A stretch of 63,915 nucleotides of DNA, from contig JAZDED010000013.1 in assembly GCA_043809145.1 (NCBI GenBank), forward strand, positions 1 through 63,915. Reading direction: 5' to 3'. The notes under the pieces are model-generated. The model was not told where the DNA came from. It did no database searches and was given only the letters and a program-made list of their open reading frames with translations. The DNA comes from Candidatus Omnitrophota bacterium. Its GTDB lineage: Bacteria; Omnitrophota; Gorgyraeia; Gygaellales; Profunditerraquicolaceae. The translations under genes and the position numbers were made by a program. This document shows, piece by piece, positions 45,561 through 52,849 of the stretch. Position 1 is the stretch's first letter, and each line of letters starts with the position of its first letter.

Positions 45561-45589
45561 ATAATAACAATTAAATAGATAATTGTCAA
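45561..45589 (-). promoter_or_regulatory. Sigma70 promoter of comF-lptF-lptG
   Basis: Minus strand TTGACA-17 nt-TATTAT with TGn; 7 nt separate the -10 from the ATG. Confidence 0.7.
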
Positions 45590-45614
45590 AAGAATTGACG
45601 GATATGGATACTTC

Positions 45615-45642
45615 TTGTAGTAAAAAGAGGCTATGCTATAAT
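45615..45642 (+). promoter_or_regulatory. Divergent promoter for the histidine kinase/receiver operon
   Basis: TTGTAG-16 nt-TATAAT with TGn extension. Confidence 0.55.
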
Positions 45643-45678
45643 ACAGTAAAAAAACAGACTGAGAAAAGGTTGCTGGAA

Positions 45679-47841
45679 ATGCATATTACGCTAAGTAAAA
45701 TTCAAGAGATTGCGGACAAGGTACTTTTTCCTCCGCACAGGAAAATATGGCATCTTTATATCGTCATCACTATCTTGTTTGTCCTTCCAATACTATGTTT
45801 ATCCTTTTTTACTTTGTTTGACACATATCGCAGTGCCACTAAATTTGCACTCTCGGAGAATAAATCAGAGGCTTTTCTTATCGCAAATATTTTGAGGGAA
45901 AGATTGGATTTGCTGGCTGAATTTGGCGCAGCCATTGCTCAGAGGCCGGACCTCATTAACTCGGTTAAGGAATGCAGGTGGGATGAAGCTATCAAGGCAG
46001 TTGATCGTGTTCCGTTGGATTTTGAATATGTTGACCGGGTACTATTGGTAGATAAACAGGGAGTTGTAAAAGCACAGGTCCCGAATTATCCAAATTATGT
46101 TGGTTTAAAACGGTCTGATACCGGTTGGTATCGCGGCGTAACCAGGCAGTGGCAAACAACCGTTTCCCAGGTTTATGTCGATCCTATTATACCTAATAGA
46201 AATATCATTTCTGTTGCTGTTCCGATAAAAATATTATCCAGCCTTATAAGTTATGACGTGGATAATACCTATGATGCGGGAAACCCGGAGCAGTTTGGAG
46301 GCATACTTCTACTTCATGTCCCGGTAAAAATATTTGCTAACCTGGTAAAGGAAGAATCAATGGTTGACCCCGGTGAATTTATTTATATTGTTGATGATTC
46401 CGGGAATTTAGTGGCTCATCCTAAATTTCAAGAGATTAGTGGGATTATTGATTATAAGCAAGCCCCCGTGGTGCAAAAGCTTCTTGCCGGCAAGCATGGA
46501 TCTGAAGTAAACTACAATCCCATCGAGAAAGAAAAAAGAGTGGTTGCCTTTGAATGCGTTCAAAAATACAGATGGGGCGTAGTAGTAGTTAAACCATACG
46601 TTCTTGCTTTTGCGGAGAGAAATAAAAGTATTAAGAGCGTGGTAATCATCTATTCAATCGCGCTTATATTGTCTCTATTTGTGGTTGTGCTGATTGTATT
46701 TGTTCTTGCGGAGCGTAGGCGCATCGATGTACTTAAGGATGATTTTGTCAGCACCGTTTCGCATGAAATACGTAATCCGCTTTTTGCTATTCGTGAATCA
46801 GTTGCCCAGGTAACCGAAGGTATCCGGGGGCCAATTACCAAAGAACAGAATGATTTTCTTGTAATTGCACTTACCAGCATTGACCGGCTCTCCAGGATTA
46901 TAAATGATCTTCTAGATGTTTCCAAGATGGAAGCGGGTAAGTTGAGGCTAAATTTTAAATGGTGTAATATTGTTGAAACATCAAGGCGCGTTTCATCTGT
47001 TTTCTTATCTCAGGCTAAAACTAAGGGTGTTGAAATAAGAGAAAGGTTACCCGTTGAGCCAGCTTATATTTTTATTGATGAAGGAAGAGTTGAGCAGGTA
47101 TTTTTTAACCTTATCAGTAACGCGCTTAAATTTACACAGCGTGGTTTTATTGAAGTAGAGATTATTGATAAAAAAGATGCTGTTGAATGTTTGGTTTCAG
47201 ATTCTGGGATCGGAATTCACAAGGAACAATTAAGCGGAATTTTTTCGAAATTGAAGAAGTATGTTTCCACTAGCCGCGGCCGGGGCAAGGGAACAGGATT
47301 AGGATTGGCTATTACCAAAGAAGTCATCTCAATGCACGGAGGGAACATCTCAATAGCAAGCACAGTGGATAAGGGCACTACGGTTACCTTTTCCCTGCCA
47401 AAATATTCACCACAAGAGGCAACTGCCCGGTTTCTAGATAACGTGATTCCAATTGGCAACAAAAAAAGGTCTCTGGAAATGATCTTTTACGATATTGGTG
47501 ATTTGGGGAGGCTGAAGTCAAAACTTGGAAACGAGAAAACAGTTTTTATCAGGTATAAATTAGTGAAGCTTATATATGTTAATATCCGCCGTGTTTCAGG
47601 AGATATATTGTTAATAGGCGAAAATGCATTTCTTATTCTTTTGCCTCAACTTGATGCGGCGCATGCTACGTTAGTAGCCAAGAAAATAGACGACTCTATT
47701 AATGATTATTTGGCGGCAGAAGCTCTATCAGCGGAAGTAAAAATAAATTCTTTAGTGATTACGTATCCACAAGTAAATAATAATAAAGAAATATTTGCCA
47801 AGATTATTAATCTTATCGCAGAATGTAAGATGCGTAAATAA
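45679..47841 (+). CDS. Cache-domain sensor histidine kinase with degenerate GGDEF-like C-terminus
   Basis: Two TM helices, dCache-type motif YIVDDSGNLVAHP, H-box VSHEIRNPL, NLISNALKF, GTGLGL; tail ...IGENAFLILLP. Likely start ATG 45679. Confidence 0.88.
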   Translation: MHITLSKIQEIADKVLFPPHRKIWHLYIVITILFVLPILCLSFFTLFDTYRSATKFALSENKSEAFLIANILRERLDLLAEFGAAIAQRPDLINSVKECRWDEAIKAVDRVPLDFEYVDRVLLVDKQGVVKAQVPNYPNYVGLKRSDTGWYRGVTRQWQTTVSQVYVDPIIPNRNIISVAVPIKILSSLISYDVDNTYDAGNPEQFGGILLLHVPVKIFANLVKEESMVDPGEFIYIVDDSGNLVAHPKFQEISGIIDYKQAPVVQKLLAGKHGSEVNYNPIEKEKRVVAFECVQKYRWGVVVVKPYVLAFAERNKSIKSVVIIYSIALILSLFVVVLIVFVLAERRRIDVLKDDFVSTVSHEIRNPLFAIRESVAQVTEGIRGPITKEQNDFLVIALTSIDRLSRIINDLLDVSKMEAGKLRLNFKWCNIVETSRRVSSVFLSQAKTKGVEIRERLPVEPAYIFIDEGRVEQVFFNLISNALKFTQRGFIEVEIIDKKDAVECLVSDSGIGIHKEQLSGIFSKLKKYVSTSRGRGKGTGLGLAITKEVISMHGGNISIASTVDKGTTVTFSLPKYSPQEATARFLDNVIPIGNKKRSLEMIFYDIGDLGRLKSKLGNEKTVFIRYKLVKLIYVNIRRVSGDILLIGENAFLILLPQLDAAHATLVAKKIDDSINDYLAAEALSAEVKINSLVITYPQVNNNKEIFAKIINLIAECKMRK

Positions 47842-47856
47842 AAGGAGAATATTACT

Positions 47857-48237
47857 ATGCAAAAAAAAATACTTATTGCCGATGACGATGTGTCTTTAGT
47901 TAATGTGCTTACGTCGCGCCTACAGCAGCATAATTATAAGGTGCTCTGCGCTTTTGACGCTGCGCAAGTAATGACTATAGCAATGTCGGATAGTCCGGAT
48001 CTTATTATTTTAGATATCAAGATGCCTGCCGGTACCGGCAAAGGAGCATTGGAGTATCTTAAGGGTTCGGGTAAAACATTTCCAATTCCAGTGATTGTCA
48101 TGACGGCTTACCCGGACGAAAACCTGCGAAAGCTTGCTATTGAGAAAGGTGCGGTTGATTTTTTCGAGAAACCTTTTCCGATTGAGAAACTTCTGGAGAG
48201 CATGGCCAGGGTTCTTCAGGAAGAAGAACGGACGTAA
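47857..48237 (+). CDS. Stand-alone receiver (REC) protein 1
   Basis: ADDD, LIILDIKMP, MTA, FEKP. Confidence 0.92.
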   Translation: MQKKILIADDDVSLVNVLTSRLQQHNYKVLCAFDAAQVMTIAMSDSPDLIILDIKMPAGTGKGALEYLKGSGKTFPIPVIVMTAYPDENLRKLAIEKGAVDFFEKPFPIEKLLESMARVLQEEERT

Positions 48238-48257
48238 TATTGTATAATTTTATTGAT

Positions 48258-48620
48258 ATGACGCAGAAGATACTAATTATAGATGACGAGCCGGACATTG
48301 TAAAGCTGCTTGAGTCAAGGTTAAAATCAAATAATTATGAGGTGATCGTTGCCTTTGACGGAAAGTCCGGGCTTGAACTTGCCAGGCAACAAAGGCCGGA
48401 TTTAATTATCCTGGATGTAGTTATGCCAAATATGGGTGGTTTTGAGGTTCTTCATGCATTAAAGCATGGCTCGCAGACAAGTATGATCCCTGTTATTATG
48501 CTTACGCAAAAGAGGGATTCGGGGTCAATGCTGGATGCGCATGAACAAGGCGGCACAGATTATATTTCTAAACCGTTTGATCCGCAAGAGCTATTAAAAG
48601 TCATAAAAAGATACGTTTAA
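48258..48620 (+). CDS. Stand-alone receiver protein 2
   Basis: IDDE, LIILDVVMP, MLT, ISKPF; likely ATG 48258. Confidence 0.92.
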   Translation: MTQKILIIDDEPDIVKLLESRLKSNNYEVIVAFDGKSGLELARQQRPDLIILDVVMPNMGGFEVLHALKHGSQTSMIPVIMLTQKRDSGSMLDAHEQGGTDYISKPFDPQELLKVIKRYV

Positions 48621-48644
48621 ACAATTTTTTTCTAAGGAGTACTC

Positions 48645-49016
48645 GTGGATAAAAAAATCCTTGTGGTGGACGATGAGATGGAGAATGTTACTCTTATAAC
48701 CTCCAGACTAAATGCCCATCAATTCCAGACGATCAGCGCCTGTAACGGCGAAAGTTGTATTGAAAAGGCGTTACAGGAAAAACCAGACTTGATAATTCTT
48801 GATATCATCATGCCGGGTTTAAGCGGTTATGAAGTATGCCGAAAACTCAAAAGCGATGAGCGTACTCGAAATATTCCGATTATTATGCTTACTGCGCTTG
48901 CCCAGGAAAAAGACTTAAATGAGGGGCTTGAGGCGGGTGCCTTGTGCTTTATAAGCAAACCCTTTAACCCCGCAGATTTAATAATCGAGGTTAAACAGGC
49001 ATTAGAAGATAATTGA
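48645..49016 (+). CDS. Stand-alone receiver protein 3
   Basis: VDDE, LIILDIIMP, MLTA, ISKPF; GTG start with SD AAGGAG. Confidence 0.92.
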   Translation: MDKKILVVDDEMENVTLITSRLNAHQFQTISACNGESCIEKALQEKPDLIILDIIMPGLSGYEVCRKLKSDERTRNIPIIMLTALAQEKDLNEGLEAGALCFISKPFNPADLIIEVKQALEDN

Positions 49017-49051
49017 ATATTCGGCTAATCAGATCAGGCGGTTTTAAAAAT

Positions 49052-49435
49052 ATGAAGAAAATAATGGTAGTTGAAGATGATCCTAATGTTCTAAGTGTTG
49101 TGGTATCAAGGCTTGAGGCAAGCGGTTTTGTTGTTAAAGTTGCCGAAGATGGCCAGACGGCGCTCGAGCAAATATATAAGGAAAAACCGGATTTGATTAT
49201 ATTAGACCTGATGCTGCCTGTACGTGACGGGATGTCAGTATGCAATCAACTTAAACGAGAGAAAAAATTTTGTAAGATTCCCATAGTAATGCTGACCGCT
49301 AAGGATAGAGAAACAGATATAAAGTTAGGCAGTCTTGTTGGAGCAGATTTGTATATTACTAAGCCTTTTGATACAAAAGAATTAGTTTCAAAAATTGATC
49401 AGCTTCTAAAAGAGGCAGGGGATCCGCAAGATTAA
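49052..49435 (+). CDS. Stand-alone receiver protein 4
   Basis: VEDD, LIILDLMLP, MLTA, ITKPF; likely ATG 49052. Confidence 0.92.
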   Translation: MKKIMVVEDDPNVLSVVVSRLEASGFVVKVAEDGQTALEQIYKEKPDLIILDLMLPVRDGMSVCNQLKREKKFCKIPIVMLTAKDRETDIKLGSLVGADLYITKPFDTKELVSKIDQLLKEAGDPQD

Positions 49436-49649: not shown

Positions 49650-50216
49650 ATGGATAAAAAAATAATAAATATAGAGGAGTTCAAGGAAAGGCTACTTGTA
49701 CTGCTGAAAACAGAGGCATTCCGTAAGGGAAACTTTGTTTTGTCTTCCGGAAAAACCAGCAATTTCTATTTGGATGGCAGGGTTTTGACCCTTACCCCAG
49801 AGGGAGTGTATTTGGCAGCTTATATTATCCTGGATATGGTTAAGGATAAGGGTATACATGCTATCGGCGGGCCGACGCTGGGCGCTGATCCTATCGTAGG
49901 AGCCATCGGAGCGATAAGCCACATTGAGAATATACCGCTTAAGACCTTTATCGTACGCAAACACGCCAAAGGGCATGGTATGCAAAAACAGATTGAGGGC
50001 CCGGAACTTGTAAGGGGGAGCCGGGTGGTTATTATTGACGATGTAGCTACGAGCGGAAAATCGCTCCTTGAGGCCAAAGAAGCCCTGGATAATGCCGGAG
50101 TAAGCATAGAGGAGGCAATAGTCCTGGTGGATCGTCAGGAAGGGGCACAGCAAAATCTTAGTCAAGCAGGTGTTAGGTTTCGTTCCATATTCACTATTCA
50201 AGATCTGGATAAATAA
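49650..50216 (+). CDS. pyrE: Orotate phosphoribosyltransferase
   Basis: FVLSSGKTSNFYLD, GGPTLGADP, RKHAKGHG, IIDDVATSGKS. Confidence 0.94.
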   Translation: MDKKIINIEEFKERLLVLLKTEAFRKGNFVLSSGKTSNFYLDGRVLTLTPEGVYLAAYIILDMVKDKGIHAIGGPTLGADPIVGAIGAISHIENIPLKTFIVRKHAKGHGMQKQIEGPELVRGSRVVIIDDVATSGKSLLEAKEALDNAGVSIEEAIVLVDRQEGAQQNLSQAGVRFRSIFTIQDLDK

Positions 50217-50229
50217 TATCAAAACTTAA

Positions 50230-51474
50230 GTGCAGAAAAAACAGGTTGTTGTAGTTGGCGCAGGGCCTGCCGGGATGATGGCGGCAATCCGCGCTAGCGA
50301 GCTAAAATCCGATGTATTCCTCATCGAGAAGAATCCTACCCTAGGCAAGAAACTTCTTTTAAGCGGTAAAGGGCGCTGTAACCTGACCAATGCATGCGCT
50401 ATGGACGAATTTTTATCCAATTTTTCTCATCACGGCCAGTTCCTCAGAGACGCCTTCGGAAAGTTCTTTAATCAGGATCTCATAGATTTTTTTGAAAAGA
50501 GGGGATTGGGGATGAGGGAGGAAAGGCAGCGCCGGATTTTCCCGGTAAGCGACCGCTCTGCTAGTGTGTTGAATATACTAAAGAATGAATTGGATAAAAG
50601 GCACATAAAGCTATTTTTAAACAACCCAGTAAAGGATATATTAGTAAAAAATTGCGTGGTCTGCGGAGTTCATTTTGGTGAAAACGAATTTCTAAAGACA
50701 AACAGTTTGATTTTGGCCACAGGTGGTGTAAGTTATAAGTTTACCGGTTCTACCGGGGAAGTCTTTAATTTACTAAAGAAATTAGGCCATACTATAATTG
50801 AATTGAAACCAGGGTTAGTGCCTTTAATAGTCAGCCAGAATTACCCCAGTTTTTTAGAGGGCCTGGTTTTAAAAAACATCTGTTTGGAGTTCGTTTCTCC
50901 TAAGTCCAGGATAATTTCTCAAAGTGGCGAGCTTTTATTTACAGGGACCGGGATTTCCGGGCCATTGGTTCTTTCTTTGAGCGGCAAGGCCGGTGATTTA
51001 CTAAGAAAAGACGGCAGTCTTTATGTGAATATTGATTTAAAGCCAGCTTTATCCATTCAGCAGTTGGAAAATCGCCTACTCAGGGAATTTAATATTAATT
51101 CCAATAAGAGCATACGTAAAATTATGGGAGAATTACTTCCTTTAAGGCTGATAGATTTATTTATCCGTATCCTGGGTTTTGACCCACGAAAAAAAGCAAA
51201 TCAGGTTACCGCTAACCAAAGGCGTAAATTTGCTTATCTATTAAAGTCCTGGCGGTTGGACATATGCGCAACTTCACCTTTGGACCAAGCAATGATTACG
51301 CGCGGAGGTGTTTCTTTAAAAGAGATTAATCCTAGGACTATGGAGTCGCGTCTGATTAAAGGGCTTTATTTTGCCGGAGAGATGATTGATATTGACGCGG
51401 ACACCGGAGGGTTCAATTTGCAGGCGGCTTTTTCTACCGGGTATCTGGCCGGAGGATCCGCAGCTTTGAGTTAA
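50230..51474 (+). CDS. HI0933/BaiN-like flavoprotein
   Basis: VGAGPAGMMAA, GKKLLLSGKGRCNLTN, ATGG.SY..TGSTG, TRGGV, GGFNLQAAFSTG. Confidence 0.92.
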   Translation: MQKKQVVVVGAGPAGMMAAIRASELKSDVFLIEKNPTLGKKLLLSGKGRCNLTNACAMDEFLSNFSHHGQFLRDAFGKFFNQDLIDFFEKRGLGMREERQRRIFPVSDRSASVLNILKNELDKRHIKLFLNNPVKDILVKNCVVCGVHFGENEFLKTNSLILATGGVSYKFTGSTGEVFNLLKKLGHTIIELKPGLVPLIVSQNYPSFLEGLVLKNICLEFVSPKSRIISQSGELLFTGTGISGPLVLSLSGKAGDLLRKDGSLYVNIDLKPALSIQQLENRLLREFNINSNKSIRKIMGELLPLRLIDLFIRILGFDPRKKANQVTANQRRKFAYLLKSWRLDICATSPLDQAMITRGGVSLKEINPRTMESRLIKGLYFAGEMIDIDADTGGFNLQAAFSTGYLAGGSAALS

Positions 51475-51478
51475 TAAA

Positions 51479-52849
51479 ATGACGCAAATATACTTAGCTT
51501 CCAATTCCAGGGCCAGAAGAAGCCTACTAAAGAACCTGGGCTTAAAATTCAAAATCTTGCCGACTGATATTGCGGAAAGAATGAAACTTCCCGGGCTTTC
51601 TTACACTGCATTAGTAAAGGCCAACGCCTTAAGAAAAGCACAGGCAGCTCTTCAAAGCATAAAGAGGGGAGTTGTTATTGCCGCTGACACTATTACTGTT
51701 CAGGAAGGCAAGATCTACGGTAAGCCTGTTGACTACAAAGCTGCCCGGAGGATGCTTAAGAAAATTTCTCTATCACCGCAATATGTTTATACCGGTATCG
51801 CGGTGATAGAGAAAGATAAAGCTATAGGTAAAGAGAAAATAATGTTGGATTGCGAGAAAACCAAAGTTTATATGAACAGGATAACCGACAAGGAGATTAA
51901 CGCTTATTTTAAAAGAACCTCGCCTTTAGACAAGGCCGGTAGTTTTGATATTCAGGGTGAGGGCGCGTTTTTTATCCGTAGAATCGAAGGTTGTTTCTAT
52001 AATGTAGTTGGTCTTCCTTTAAGTAAGCTCTACACTATCTTTAAGAAACTTAATATTAAGCTGCTAATGTTTTTTCTACCTGTTACCTGCTATCTGCTAT
52101 CTACTTTTCTTTTATCTGGCTGCTCAACGGAATATAACCTGGTTACCGGAGAGCAGGAGTCATACTATTATTCTACAGAAAAAGAGGTGGCGATGGGTAA
52201 GAATATTGCCCGGCAGATAGAGAAGGAATATAATTCTACCAATATTGATCCTATTCTTGAGAAAAAGGTTAAAGATATCGGAGCCAGAATAGCGCAGGTC
52301 TCAGACCGTAAAGAGATAGAATATCATTTTAGCGTGTTGGATGAGGATGAAGTCAATGCGGTTTCTCTTCCCGGAGGCTATATTTATATATTTAAGGGGC
52401 TGGCTGAAAAGGTAAAATCCGATGACGAACTGGCCGCAGTTTTGGCCCATGAGGTTGCGCATGTGGTAGCCAGGCATAGCATCAAGAAACTCCAGGCTAT
52501 GACCGGGTATTCTATTTTGAGATTTTTAATGCTTCCTTTGCCTCAAGGGGGCCAGGTTGGGCAGGCAGCAGACCTTGCTTTTATAGAGATACTTACCGGA
52601 TATTCCCGCGAAGACGAACTTTTAGCTGATCAACTCGCAGCCCGTTATGCAAAGTTGGCCGGATATAATCCCAGGGCCATGATTGATTTTCTGGAAACCC
52701 TGCAGGATATTAACCGGCGCAGGCCGCTTACTCCTAAGAATTATATACGCACGCATCCTTATGTGCCGGACAGGATTAGAGTAGTGAAAGAGGAATTGGG
52801 CGAGAAGATTGATTTTACCGATTATATTAATATAGAGCAGAAAAAATAG
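51479..52849 (+). CDS. Fusion: Maf nucleotide pyrophosphatase + lipobox + M48 Zn-metalloprotease
   Basis: Maf motifs LASNS, ADT, GKP, DKAG, NVVGLP; hydrophobic stretch ending LSGC; HEVAH and SREDELLAD M48 motifs, all in one frame. Confidence 0.85.
   Translation: MTQIYLASNSRARRSLLKNLGLKFKILPTDIAERMKLPGLSYTALVKANALRKAQAALQSIKRGVVIAADTITVQEGKIYGKPVDYKAARRMLKKISLSPQYVYTGIAVIEKDKAIGKEKIMLDCEKTKVYMNRITDKEINAYFKRTSPLDKAGSFDIQGEGAFFIRRIEGCFYNVVGLPLSKLYTIFKKLNIKLLMFFLPVTCYLLSTFLLSGCSTEYNLVTGEQESYYYSTEKEVAMGKNIARQIEKEYNSTNIDPILEKKVKDIGARIAQVSDRKEIEYHFSVLDEDEVNAVSLPGGYIYIFKGLAEKVKSDDELAAVLAHEVAHVVARHSIKKLQAMTGYSILRFLMLPLPQGGQVGQAADLAFIEILTGYSREDELLADQLAARYAKLAGYNPRAMIDFLETLQDINRRRPLTPKNYIRTHPYVPDRIRVVKEELGEKIDFTDYINIEQKK
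52076..52103. repeat. 4 x 7-nt tandem repeat at the Maf/M48 junction
   Basis: CTACCTG TTACCTG CTATCTG CTATCTA. Confidence 0.7.

Follow-up and report, generated by a model that had tools for sequence, protein, structure and literature searches.

A conserved Maf-M48 fusion with an internal lipoprotein signal in Omnitrophota: a candidate two-compartment polyprotein

What becomes of a protein when a cytoplasmic enzyme and a periplasmic protease are encoded in one open reading frame (ORF), with a lipoprotein signal lying between them? This question is raised by a locus in a Candidatus Omnitrophota bacterium (assembly GCA_043809145.1, GTDB family Profunditerraquicolaceae), of which positions 1 to 63,915 of contig JAZDED010000013.1 were analysed; this whole stretch of 63,915 nucleotides (nt) is referred to as the window. 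The only long frame at the locus is an ORF on the forward strand (51479-52849) that encodes 456 amino acids (aa) and comprises a Maf nucleotide pyrophosphatase domain, an internal lipoprotein signal, and an M48 protease domain (Table 1). A first-pass annotation, made from the DNA alone, had offered two explanations, i.e., a trans-envelope protein coupling the two enzymes or a polyprotein cut by Lgt and LspA. Comparison with homologues leads us to favour the latter with moderate confidence: the fusion is probably a natural two-compartment polyprotein, oriented with its N terminus in the cytoplasm and its C terminus outside (N-in/C-out), which Lgt and LspA would cut into two products, Maf with the signal peptide left on it as a stub and an M48 lipoprotein.

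The two domains were readily recognized by profile searches. The Pfam model Maf (PF02545) matched over 186 of its 187 positions (E-value 5.8e-51; 173.3 bits against a cut-off of 27), and the NCBIfam model TIGR00172 ('maf') scored 153.6 bits (cut-off 117.15). Peptidase_M48 (PF01435) was placed at residues 260 to 439 (E-value 9.2e-33; 114.1 bits against a cut-off of 20.3 in Pfam), leaving about 15 residues between the end of this domain and the end of the protein. The linker reads K189-K-L-N-I-K194, followed by a hydrophobic stretch from L195 to L-L-S-G214 and then by C215-S-T-E-Y-N, so that three lysines precede the hydrophobic segment and a Glu-rich sequence follows it, giving a charge bias. 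Residues 189 to 215 include the basic n-region, the h-region, and the lipobox of a lipoprotein precursor; their position is not N-terminal, as the signal lies about 190 residues into the ORF, behind Maf. The complete Maf domain, the KKLNIK motif, the hydrophobic stretch ending at the cysteine, and the M48 domain with HEVAH and SREDELLAD had all been read from one frame in the first-pass annotation, and this description stands. The same holds for its proposal that the Maf C terminus supplies the basic n-region, since the C termini of unfused Maf proteins (...GKFGIKVL, ...KFGVHVL, and ...KVKVDIF, each directly before a stop codon) are comparable to KKLNIKLL in the window protein. AlphaFold2, run on the alignment, produced two confident domains (Maf, residues 1 to 190; M48, residues ~231 to 445). 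The predicted local distance difference test (pLDDT), averaged over blocks of 10 residues, was mostly 80 to 97, with values of ~50 to 70 near residues 151 to 180, 330 to 380, and 411 to 430. For the linker (residues 197 to 230) pLDDT was below 50; the predicted template modelling score was 0.49, and the domains had no fixed mutual orientation. This picture is weakly consistent with a flexible signal segment.

The fusion proved to be widespread among relatives. A word-indexed protein search gave 2113 significant matches, and the figures given for fused homologues refer to the best 120 clusters of these. Their members are 441 to 469 aa long, cover 98 to 100% of the query, and contain both Pfam domains in every case; apart from the entry of the window protein itself, they are 63 to 68% identical to it. 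They derive from NCBI, JGI, ENA, and Logan assemblies, and nearly all named entries are assigned to Candidatus Omnitrophota, two being labelled just 'bacterium'. A stop-free match over residues 1 to 455 was present in 28 of the 201 Omnitrophota genomes sampled; the fusion was found in 18 of 18 genomes of the same family (59 to 67% identity) and also in ten genomes from six other families of the class (44 to 52% identity). An exhaustive scan of 1.84 billion representatives returned, among the top 150, two full-length fused proteins along with fragments spanning the junction, the rest being single-domain proteins; this library carries no names, and the taxonomy of the two fused representatives rests on the protein and genome searches. 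The exact window protein is recorded on two contigs. Close relatives have no stop codon between the domains; the frame runs through uninterrupted. The fusion is thus real and conserved. The Maf-M48 architecture appears to be confined to one group of Omnitrophota, in agreement with the earlier remark that it is unfamiliar from model organisms, yet public databases already use the name 'Maf and M48 domain-containing protein' for some of the clusters.

Conservation within the linker is concentrated at the lipobox. The cysteine is present in 120 of 120 fused homologues; position -1 is occupied by Gly in 118 of them and by Ala in two, the residue at +2 is Ser, Ala, or Thr, and the strict pattern [LVI][ASTVI][GAS]C is matched by 107. 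An alignment of 62 sequences shows no variation at C215 and almost none at G214; the remaining linker positions are less than 60% conserved, and the hydrophobic stretch varies from 10 to 23 residues, with L, F, V, and I as the common residues of the n- and h-regions. In some fused forms the hydrophobic stretch is short, e.g., ICILCFILSG before the cysteine, which is too short for a stable transmembrane helix. The cysteine is dispensable for the M48 fold, as unfused orthologues in three families (f25, f9, and f7) have signal-peptidase-I type ends instead. Unfused M48 genes of this cysteine-less kind were located at L032 (genome G143), L034 (G175), L044-L045 and L047-L048 (G029, G027, G049, G105), and L049 and L052 (G113, G023); their signals end directly before the conserved EYN, e.g., ...SFEASA followed by EYN. 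In these lineages the M48 protease is predicted to be a soluble periplasmic protein. The lipobox has been lost in three unfused families versus no fused one, a contrast that is suggestive only, the losses being phylogenetically clustered. Judged by the alignment, both active sites and the lipobox are under purifying selection.

The enzymes needed for lipoprotein maturation occur in the lineage. Lgt is encoded in the genome from which the window derives; of 150 high-quality Omnitrophota genomes, LspA was detected in 149, as it was in each of the 17 other members of the family, and an Lnt match above the family cut-off was obtained for 18 of the 21 family genomes. LptF and LptG are encoded within the window, pointing to a cell envelope with both a periplasm and an outer membrane. 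Twenty of the 21 family genomes encode an RseP-like M50 protease. In four relatives from the family (G205, G210, G211, and G219), weak M50-like matches were also located within open frames that are 10,731 to 68,606 aa long. A 2026 bioRxiv preprint reportedly deals with very long proteins in Omnitrophota, and the giant frames of the relatives are in line with that topic.

The simplest account of an invariant lipobox behind a drifting hydrophobic stretch, of an unfused M48 protein that is an ordinary lipoprotein, and of the presence of Lgt, LspA, and Lnt in the lineage is that the lipoprotein pathway still accepts the fused precursor as a substrate. The course of insertion, lipidation, and cleavage, and what then becomes of Maf, are inferred as follows. 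Maf (residues 1 to ~194) would be made and folded in the cytoplasm. The lysines of its C terminus, some 20 hydrophobic residues, and L-S-G-C215 would then act as an internal signal that inserts N-in/C-out via Sec and the signal recognition particle (SRP), with the consequence that the M48 domain is translocated to the periplasm. Lgt would attach diacylglycerol to C215, LspA would cut between G214 and C215, and Lnt would N-acylate the new N terminus, yielding an ordinary M48 lipoprotein of the envelope with Ser at +2. On the cytoplasmic side, the signal peptide would remain on the C terminus of Maf as a membrane tail, and Maf may either stay tail-anchored or be released by a protease that degrades signal peptides, such as the RseP-like M50 enzyme. 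Of the two explanations offered earlier, the polyprotein cut by Lgt and LspA is favoured by the lipobox cysteine, the small residue at -1, the variable h-region, the unfused lipoproteins, and the maturation enzymes, whereas trans-envelope coupling found no support.

Several observations weigh against cleavage by Lgt and LspA. Neither LspA nor Lnt was found in the genome of the window itself, which is 66% complete. LolA (Pfam PF03548) was matched in 0 of 21 family genomes, a result that is uninformative because the model detects just 5 of 14 control genomes; the family may have a LolA too diverged for the model, or lipoprotein sorting may differ, although Lgt, LspA, and Lnt are present. A literature search gave no documented case of Lgt and LspA acting on a lipobox ~200 residues behind a folded domain. 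Finally, the uncharged stretch before the cysteine is long in the family of the window protein, mostly 17 to 23 residues with a median of 20 across clusters and 18.5 across genomes. By comparison, 20 N-terminal lipoprotein signals from this genome have a median of 14, and unfused orthologues one of 14.5. Twenty residues is what a stable membrane anchor typically has, and signal peptidase I is known to be blocked when the h-region is long. The long stretch could reflect an uncut chain, but also selection for targeting of the internal signal by SRP, or for Maf to be stably tail-anchored once cut.

This length speaks for the main rival reading, an uncleaved bitopic (type II) protein of the inner membrane, with Maf on the cytoplasmic face, M48 in the periplasm, and a permanent transmembrane helix between the two, whether or not the halves are coupled. 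The stretch in the family would span the bilayer and exceeds the ordinary lipoprotein signals of the genome, and the single ORF has long been conserved. A plain anchor, however, gives no reason for retaining Cys and a preceding Gly or Ala in 120 of 120 homologues while the remainder of the segment drifts, and stretches of just ~10 to 13 hydrophobic residues occur in fused forms of other orders and in some of the same family. As the unfused orthologues are lipoproteins or soluble periplasmic proteins, a permanent tether to Maf would also mean that a large change of location was accepted repeatedly, and the unlinked state of the genes in most families argues against obligatory coupling. Taken together, we regard a permanently uncleaved protein as unlikely.

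A precursor cut outside the lipoprotein pathway, by signal peptidase I, by the M48 domain itself, or by another protease, is improbable. Unfused orthologues of three families do use signal-peptidase-I type signals, and the M48 domain is itself a protease, but no fused member has lost the lipobox, the residues before the cysteine match the lipobox pattern rather than A-x-A, and an h-region of 20 residues is expected to disfavour signal peptidase I.

We consider it likewise improbable that the M48 lipoprotein is made separately by internal initiation at M197, the full-length fusion being a minor or non-functional by-product. An in-frame ATG does mark the precise site of the old gene boundary, and the surrounding sequence is AT-rich. 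The first-pass annotation had noted this codon, placed it at 52068 instead of 52067-52069, and pointed out that it lacks a Shine-Dalgarno (SD) motif; the motif is indeed missing, but the argument from it is weak. Specifically, GGAG, GAGG, or AGGA was found 4 to 20 nt upstream of the first start codon in 17 of the 54 putative genes of the window and not at the Maf start, while SD-like motifs precede 45 of the 321 internal ATGs in the window. With few genes carrying such a motif, SD arguments have little force in this genome, and non-conservation of the methionine is the better argument: a Met anywhere in the n- or h-region occurs in just 30 of the 120 homologues, which speaks against an internal start as the source of a separate M48 protein. 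In addition, a product starting at M197 would lack the basic n-region, its lysines lying upstream, and every full-length product would leave the only Maf of the genome carrying the whole M48 chain. A sequencing or assembly artefact of this contig alone, with a missing stop codon or a frameshift having merged separate genes, could in principle result from a one-base error near the junction, where a TAA in the +1 frame overlaps the ATG (52065-52069), but is ruled out for practical purposes by the uninterrupted frame in at least 120 independent clusters from several assembly sources and in 28 genomes.

The junction itself points to how the fusion came about. In four genomes of the class (G129, G139, G151, and G167), maf is directly followed by the M48 gene as a separate ORF, and in G129 and G139 the stop codon of maf and the start codon of the M48 gene overlap as ATGA (...AAA GTT TTA TGA / ATG ACA CCG...). 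In both genomes the unfused M48 protein begins with an ordinary lipoprotein signal, e.g., MTPMLFICLSLVVLLSGC followed by ASEFN in G129. The window reads ...AAG CTG CTA ATG TTT... at the corresponding site, with M197 at the old boundary and the +1-frame TAA (52065-52067) overlapping its ATG. Because stop and start overlap in the unfused pairs, a one-base frame change joins both genes, and the fusion most probably arose by such a change in a translationally coupled pair of maf and M48 lipoprotein genes with overlapping codons. Only some lineages have the two genes close together; in most families of the class they are unlinked, being found on different contigs. Separate genes in these four genomes, in G155, and in many other genomes are as expected of a polyprotein whose products exist individually elsewhere.

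A tree of the M48 domain calculated from 50 sequences placed the family of the window protein (13 fused sequences) as sister to the unfused sequence of G155, with a Shimodaira-Hasegawa-like approximate likelihood ratio test (SH-aLRT) value of 96, and scattered the other fused lineages among those with adjacent and those with unlinked genes. Constraining all fused sequences into one clade cost 90 log-likelihood units, and a single origin of the fusion was rejected on this tree (approximately unbiased [AU] test, p = 2e-8); a single origin of linkage, with fused plus adjacent sequences held together as one clade, gave a borderline value (p = 0.057) and was not rejected. As the fused sequences do not form one clade, fusion, fission, or both occurred more than once. 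Repeated changes of state are easiest to accept if the products equal those of separate genes; if the precursor is cut, the same M48 lipoprotein is obtained as in the unfused relatives, which would explain why repeated gains or losses of the fusion carried no visible cost. We tentatively advance, as a possible though doubtful extension, that Lgt and LspA serve as a polyprotein-processing system acting on an internal lipobox, that Maf is left tail-anchored on the inner face of the membrane, that the stretch was lengthened to ~20 residues in this family, that a protease and a membrane-localised pyrophosphatase are obtained at a ratio of 1:1, and that this arrangement arose or reverted more than once in Omnitrophota.

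With their catalytic signatures invariant or nearly so, both halves look like working enzymes. The residues S10, R13, E33, K53, D70, and K82, invariant or nearly so in the 62 homologues, form the Maf signature, which corresponds to Ser10, Arg13, Glu33, Lys52, Asp70, and Lys82 of YhdE (Tchigvintsev et al. 2013, PMC3899018). At the positions that distinguish the subfamilies, R12-T71-Q153 in YhdE and W-Q-E in YceF (PMC3899018), the window protein has A12-T71-Q159, i.e., two of three residues of the YhdE type and zero of the YceF type. A12 is nearly invariant in the clade, and an R12A variant of YhdE had near wild-type activity toward dTTP (PMC3899018). The protein shares the full-length domain, the six signature residues, T71, and Q159 with YhdE-type pyrophosphatases such as E. 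coli YhdE (PDB 4p0e) and B. subtilis Maf (1ex2/4heb), and it differs in the Ala in place of YhdE Arg12 and in a C terminus that continues into the signal peptide. The Maf half of the fusion is the sole Maf in the genome. A fused relative with 42% identity, P0122 (433 aa; loci L058-L060, 6001-7302), keeps D70 and the lipobox and has AWAGGFNVEE in place of the DKAGSFDIQG of the family; the Maf half of this protein, although still fused, may be degenerate as a catalyst.

The M48 half resembles E. coli LoiP (YggG) and other short M48 lipoproteins in having a domain of ~240 residues with HExxH and E-x-x-A-D motifs, a preceding lipobox, and no tetratricopeptide repeat (TPR) domain; the internal position of the signal peptide sets it apart. 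E380 presumably serves as the third zinc ligand, as is usual in the M48 family. The LoiP model (NF052399) aligned residues 206 to 439 with positions 8 to 243 of its 247, signal included, at 44.9 bits against a cut-off of 365, and the BepA model (NF052400) scored 101.3 against 570. Orthology to either protein was rejected, given that the scores are far below the equivalog cut-offs and that the C-terminal TPR domain of BepA is lacking. A PDB entry described as 'Peptidase, M48 family' (3c37) was matched with an E-value of 1.3e-30.

The genes around the fusion were inspected for signs of a functional link. A pyrE-like phosphoribosyltransferase gene and an HI0933-like flavoprotein gene precede the fusion (Table 1). 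The same gene order is found in a relative with 66% identity, and a fused relative with 42% identity has a pyrE-like gene followed by Maf-M48. Conserved synteny and co-orientation suggest that the pyrE-like gene, the HI0933-like gene, and the fusion probably form one operon. In G155, from the sister family, the M48 lipoprotein gene directly follows the pyrE-like gene, and an HI0933-like gene followed by maf lies on another contig (L021, G155:C1; L022, G155:C2); the HI0933-maf segment appears either to have been excised from a cluster running from pyrE to the M48 gene or, elsewhere, to have been inserted into one. The conserved order of a pyrE-like gene and maf fits the pyrimidine-nucleotide chemistry of Maf and says nothing about the protease. 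Other neighbours encode a glycoside-hydrolase-like protein and a nitroreductase, and the set suggests no shared pathway. Because maf and the M48 gene are unlinked in most families and the neighbours show no common pathway, functional coupling of Maf and M48 is without support. Further upstream in the window (45583-49435), a dCache histidine kinase gene (752 aa) is followed by four tandem genes for single-domain response regulators (126, 126, 123, and 140 aa). Together these genes separate a comF-like gene from the pyrE-like gene; since the latter two are direct divergent neighbours in relatives (loci L057 and L058), the block looks like an insertion into the conserved synteny.

Table 1. Coordinates in the window of the fused ORF, its parts, and the two genes preceding it
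Feature	Position	Strand	Basis
Whole fused ORF: Maf, internal lipoprotein signal, M48 (456 aa plus stop)	51479..52849	+	Full-length stop-free homologues
Maf nucleotide pyrophosphatase domain, residues 3-190, YhdE-like	51485..52048	+	Pfam; TIGR00172; alignment to YhdE (4p0e)
Basic n-region of the internal signal, K189 K190 L N I K194, also the native Maf C terminus	52043..52060	+	Comparison of unfused Maf C termini
Hydrophobic h-region L195-G214, 20 uncharged residues, ending in the lipobox L212-S213-G214 before C215	52061..52120	+	
ATG for M197, probably the vestigial start of a once-separate M48 gene	52067..52069	+	Sequence; unfused genes of G129 and G139
TGC for Cys215, predicted diacylglyceryl-modified +1 residue; predicted LspA cleavage between G214 and C215	52121..52123	+	Homologue conservation
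Predicted mature M48 lipoprotein, C215-K456, 242 aa, LoiP-like in size, without TPR domain	52121..52846	+	
HEVAH zinc-binding and catalytic motif (H324, E325, H328)	52448..52462	+	Invariant in 62 aligned homologues
E380 of the E-x-x-A-D motif (within SREDELLAD), inferred third zinc ligand	52616..52618	+	D379, E380, A383, D384 invariant
pyrE-like phosphoribosyltransferase	49650-50216	+	Pfam
HI0933-like flavoprotein, ending 4 nt before the Maf ATG	50230-51474	+	Pfam

The literature search found no paper linking Maf, M48, and Omnitrophota, and nothing on an internal lipobox or an internal lipoprotein signal. The nearest known bacterial counterpart is the FbcH cytochrome b-c1 precursor of Bradyrhizobium japonicum, reportedly described by Thony-Meyer et al. 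in about 1989-1991, which is said to be a single ORF whose product is split at an internal signal peptide. It shares with the present protein the nature of a bacterial single-ORF precursor with an internal signal between two mature proteins, cleavage being predicted for the latter; the upstream part of FbcH, however, is a membrane protein and its signal is cut by signal peptidase I, whereas here a soluble cytoplasmic enzyme is followed by a lipobox, i.e., a site for signal peptidase II. These two features are what is new relative to FbcH, the architecture itself being already annotated. Polyproteins of flavi-, pesti-, and bunyaviruses contain internal signal peptides cut by host signal peptidase; the logic is shared, in that the internal signal translocates the downstream part and marks the cut, and the viral systems differ in relying on the eukaryotic endoplasmic reticulum and signal peptidase I, with no lipid modification. 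The unfused pairs of Omnitrophota (G129, G139, G151, and G167) have orthologous genes in the same order, but as two ORFs, the boundary between which is lost in the window. Human ASMTL (PDB 2p5x; match with an E-value of 1e-22) is another natural Maf fusion, to a methyltransferase-like domain (discussed in PMC3899018), and differs in that its two domains share a single compartment and are not separated by a membrane signal.

Both domains of the window protein are ordinary, and the interest lies in their junction. If the proposed processing is true, the protein would offer a test case for Lgt and LspA acting on a signal that is not N-terminal, for a soluble cytoplasmic enzyme serving as a giant 'n-region' of a lipoprotein signal, and for the fate of a protein attached to a cleaved signal peptide. 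If the chain stays uncut, the protein would be unusual in pairing, across the membrane, a nucleotide house-cleaning enzyme and a periplasmic protease. For small, compact genomes, the locus suggests that overlapping stop and start codons can turn an operon into a polyprotein at little apparent cost and, for annotation in uncultured phyla, that a fused ORF need not equal a fused mature protein.

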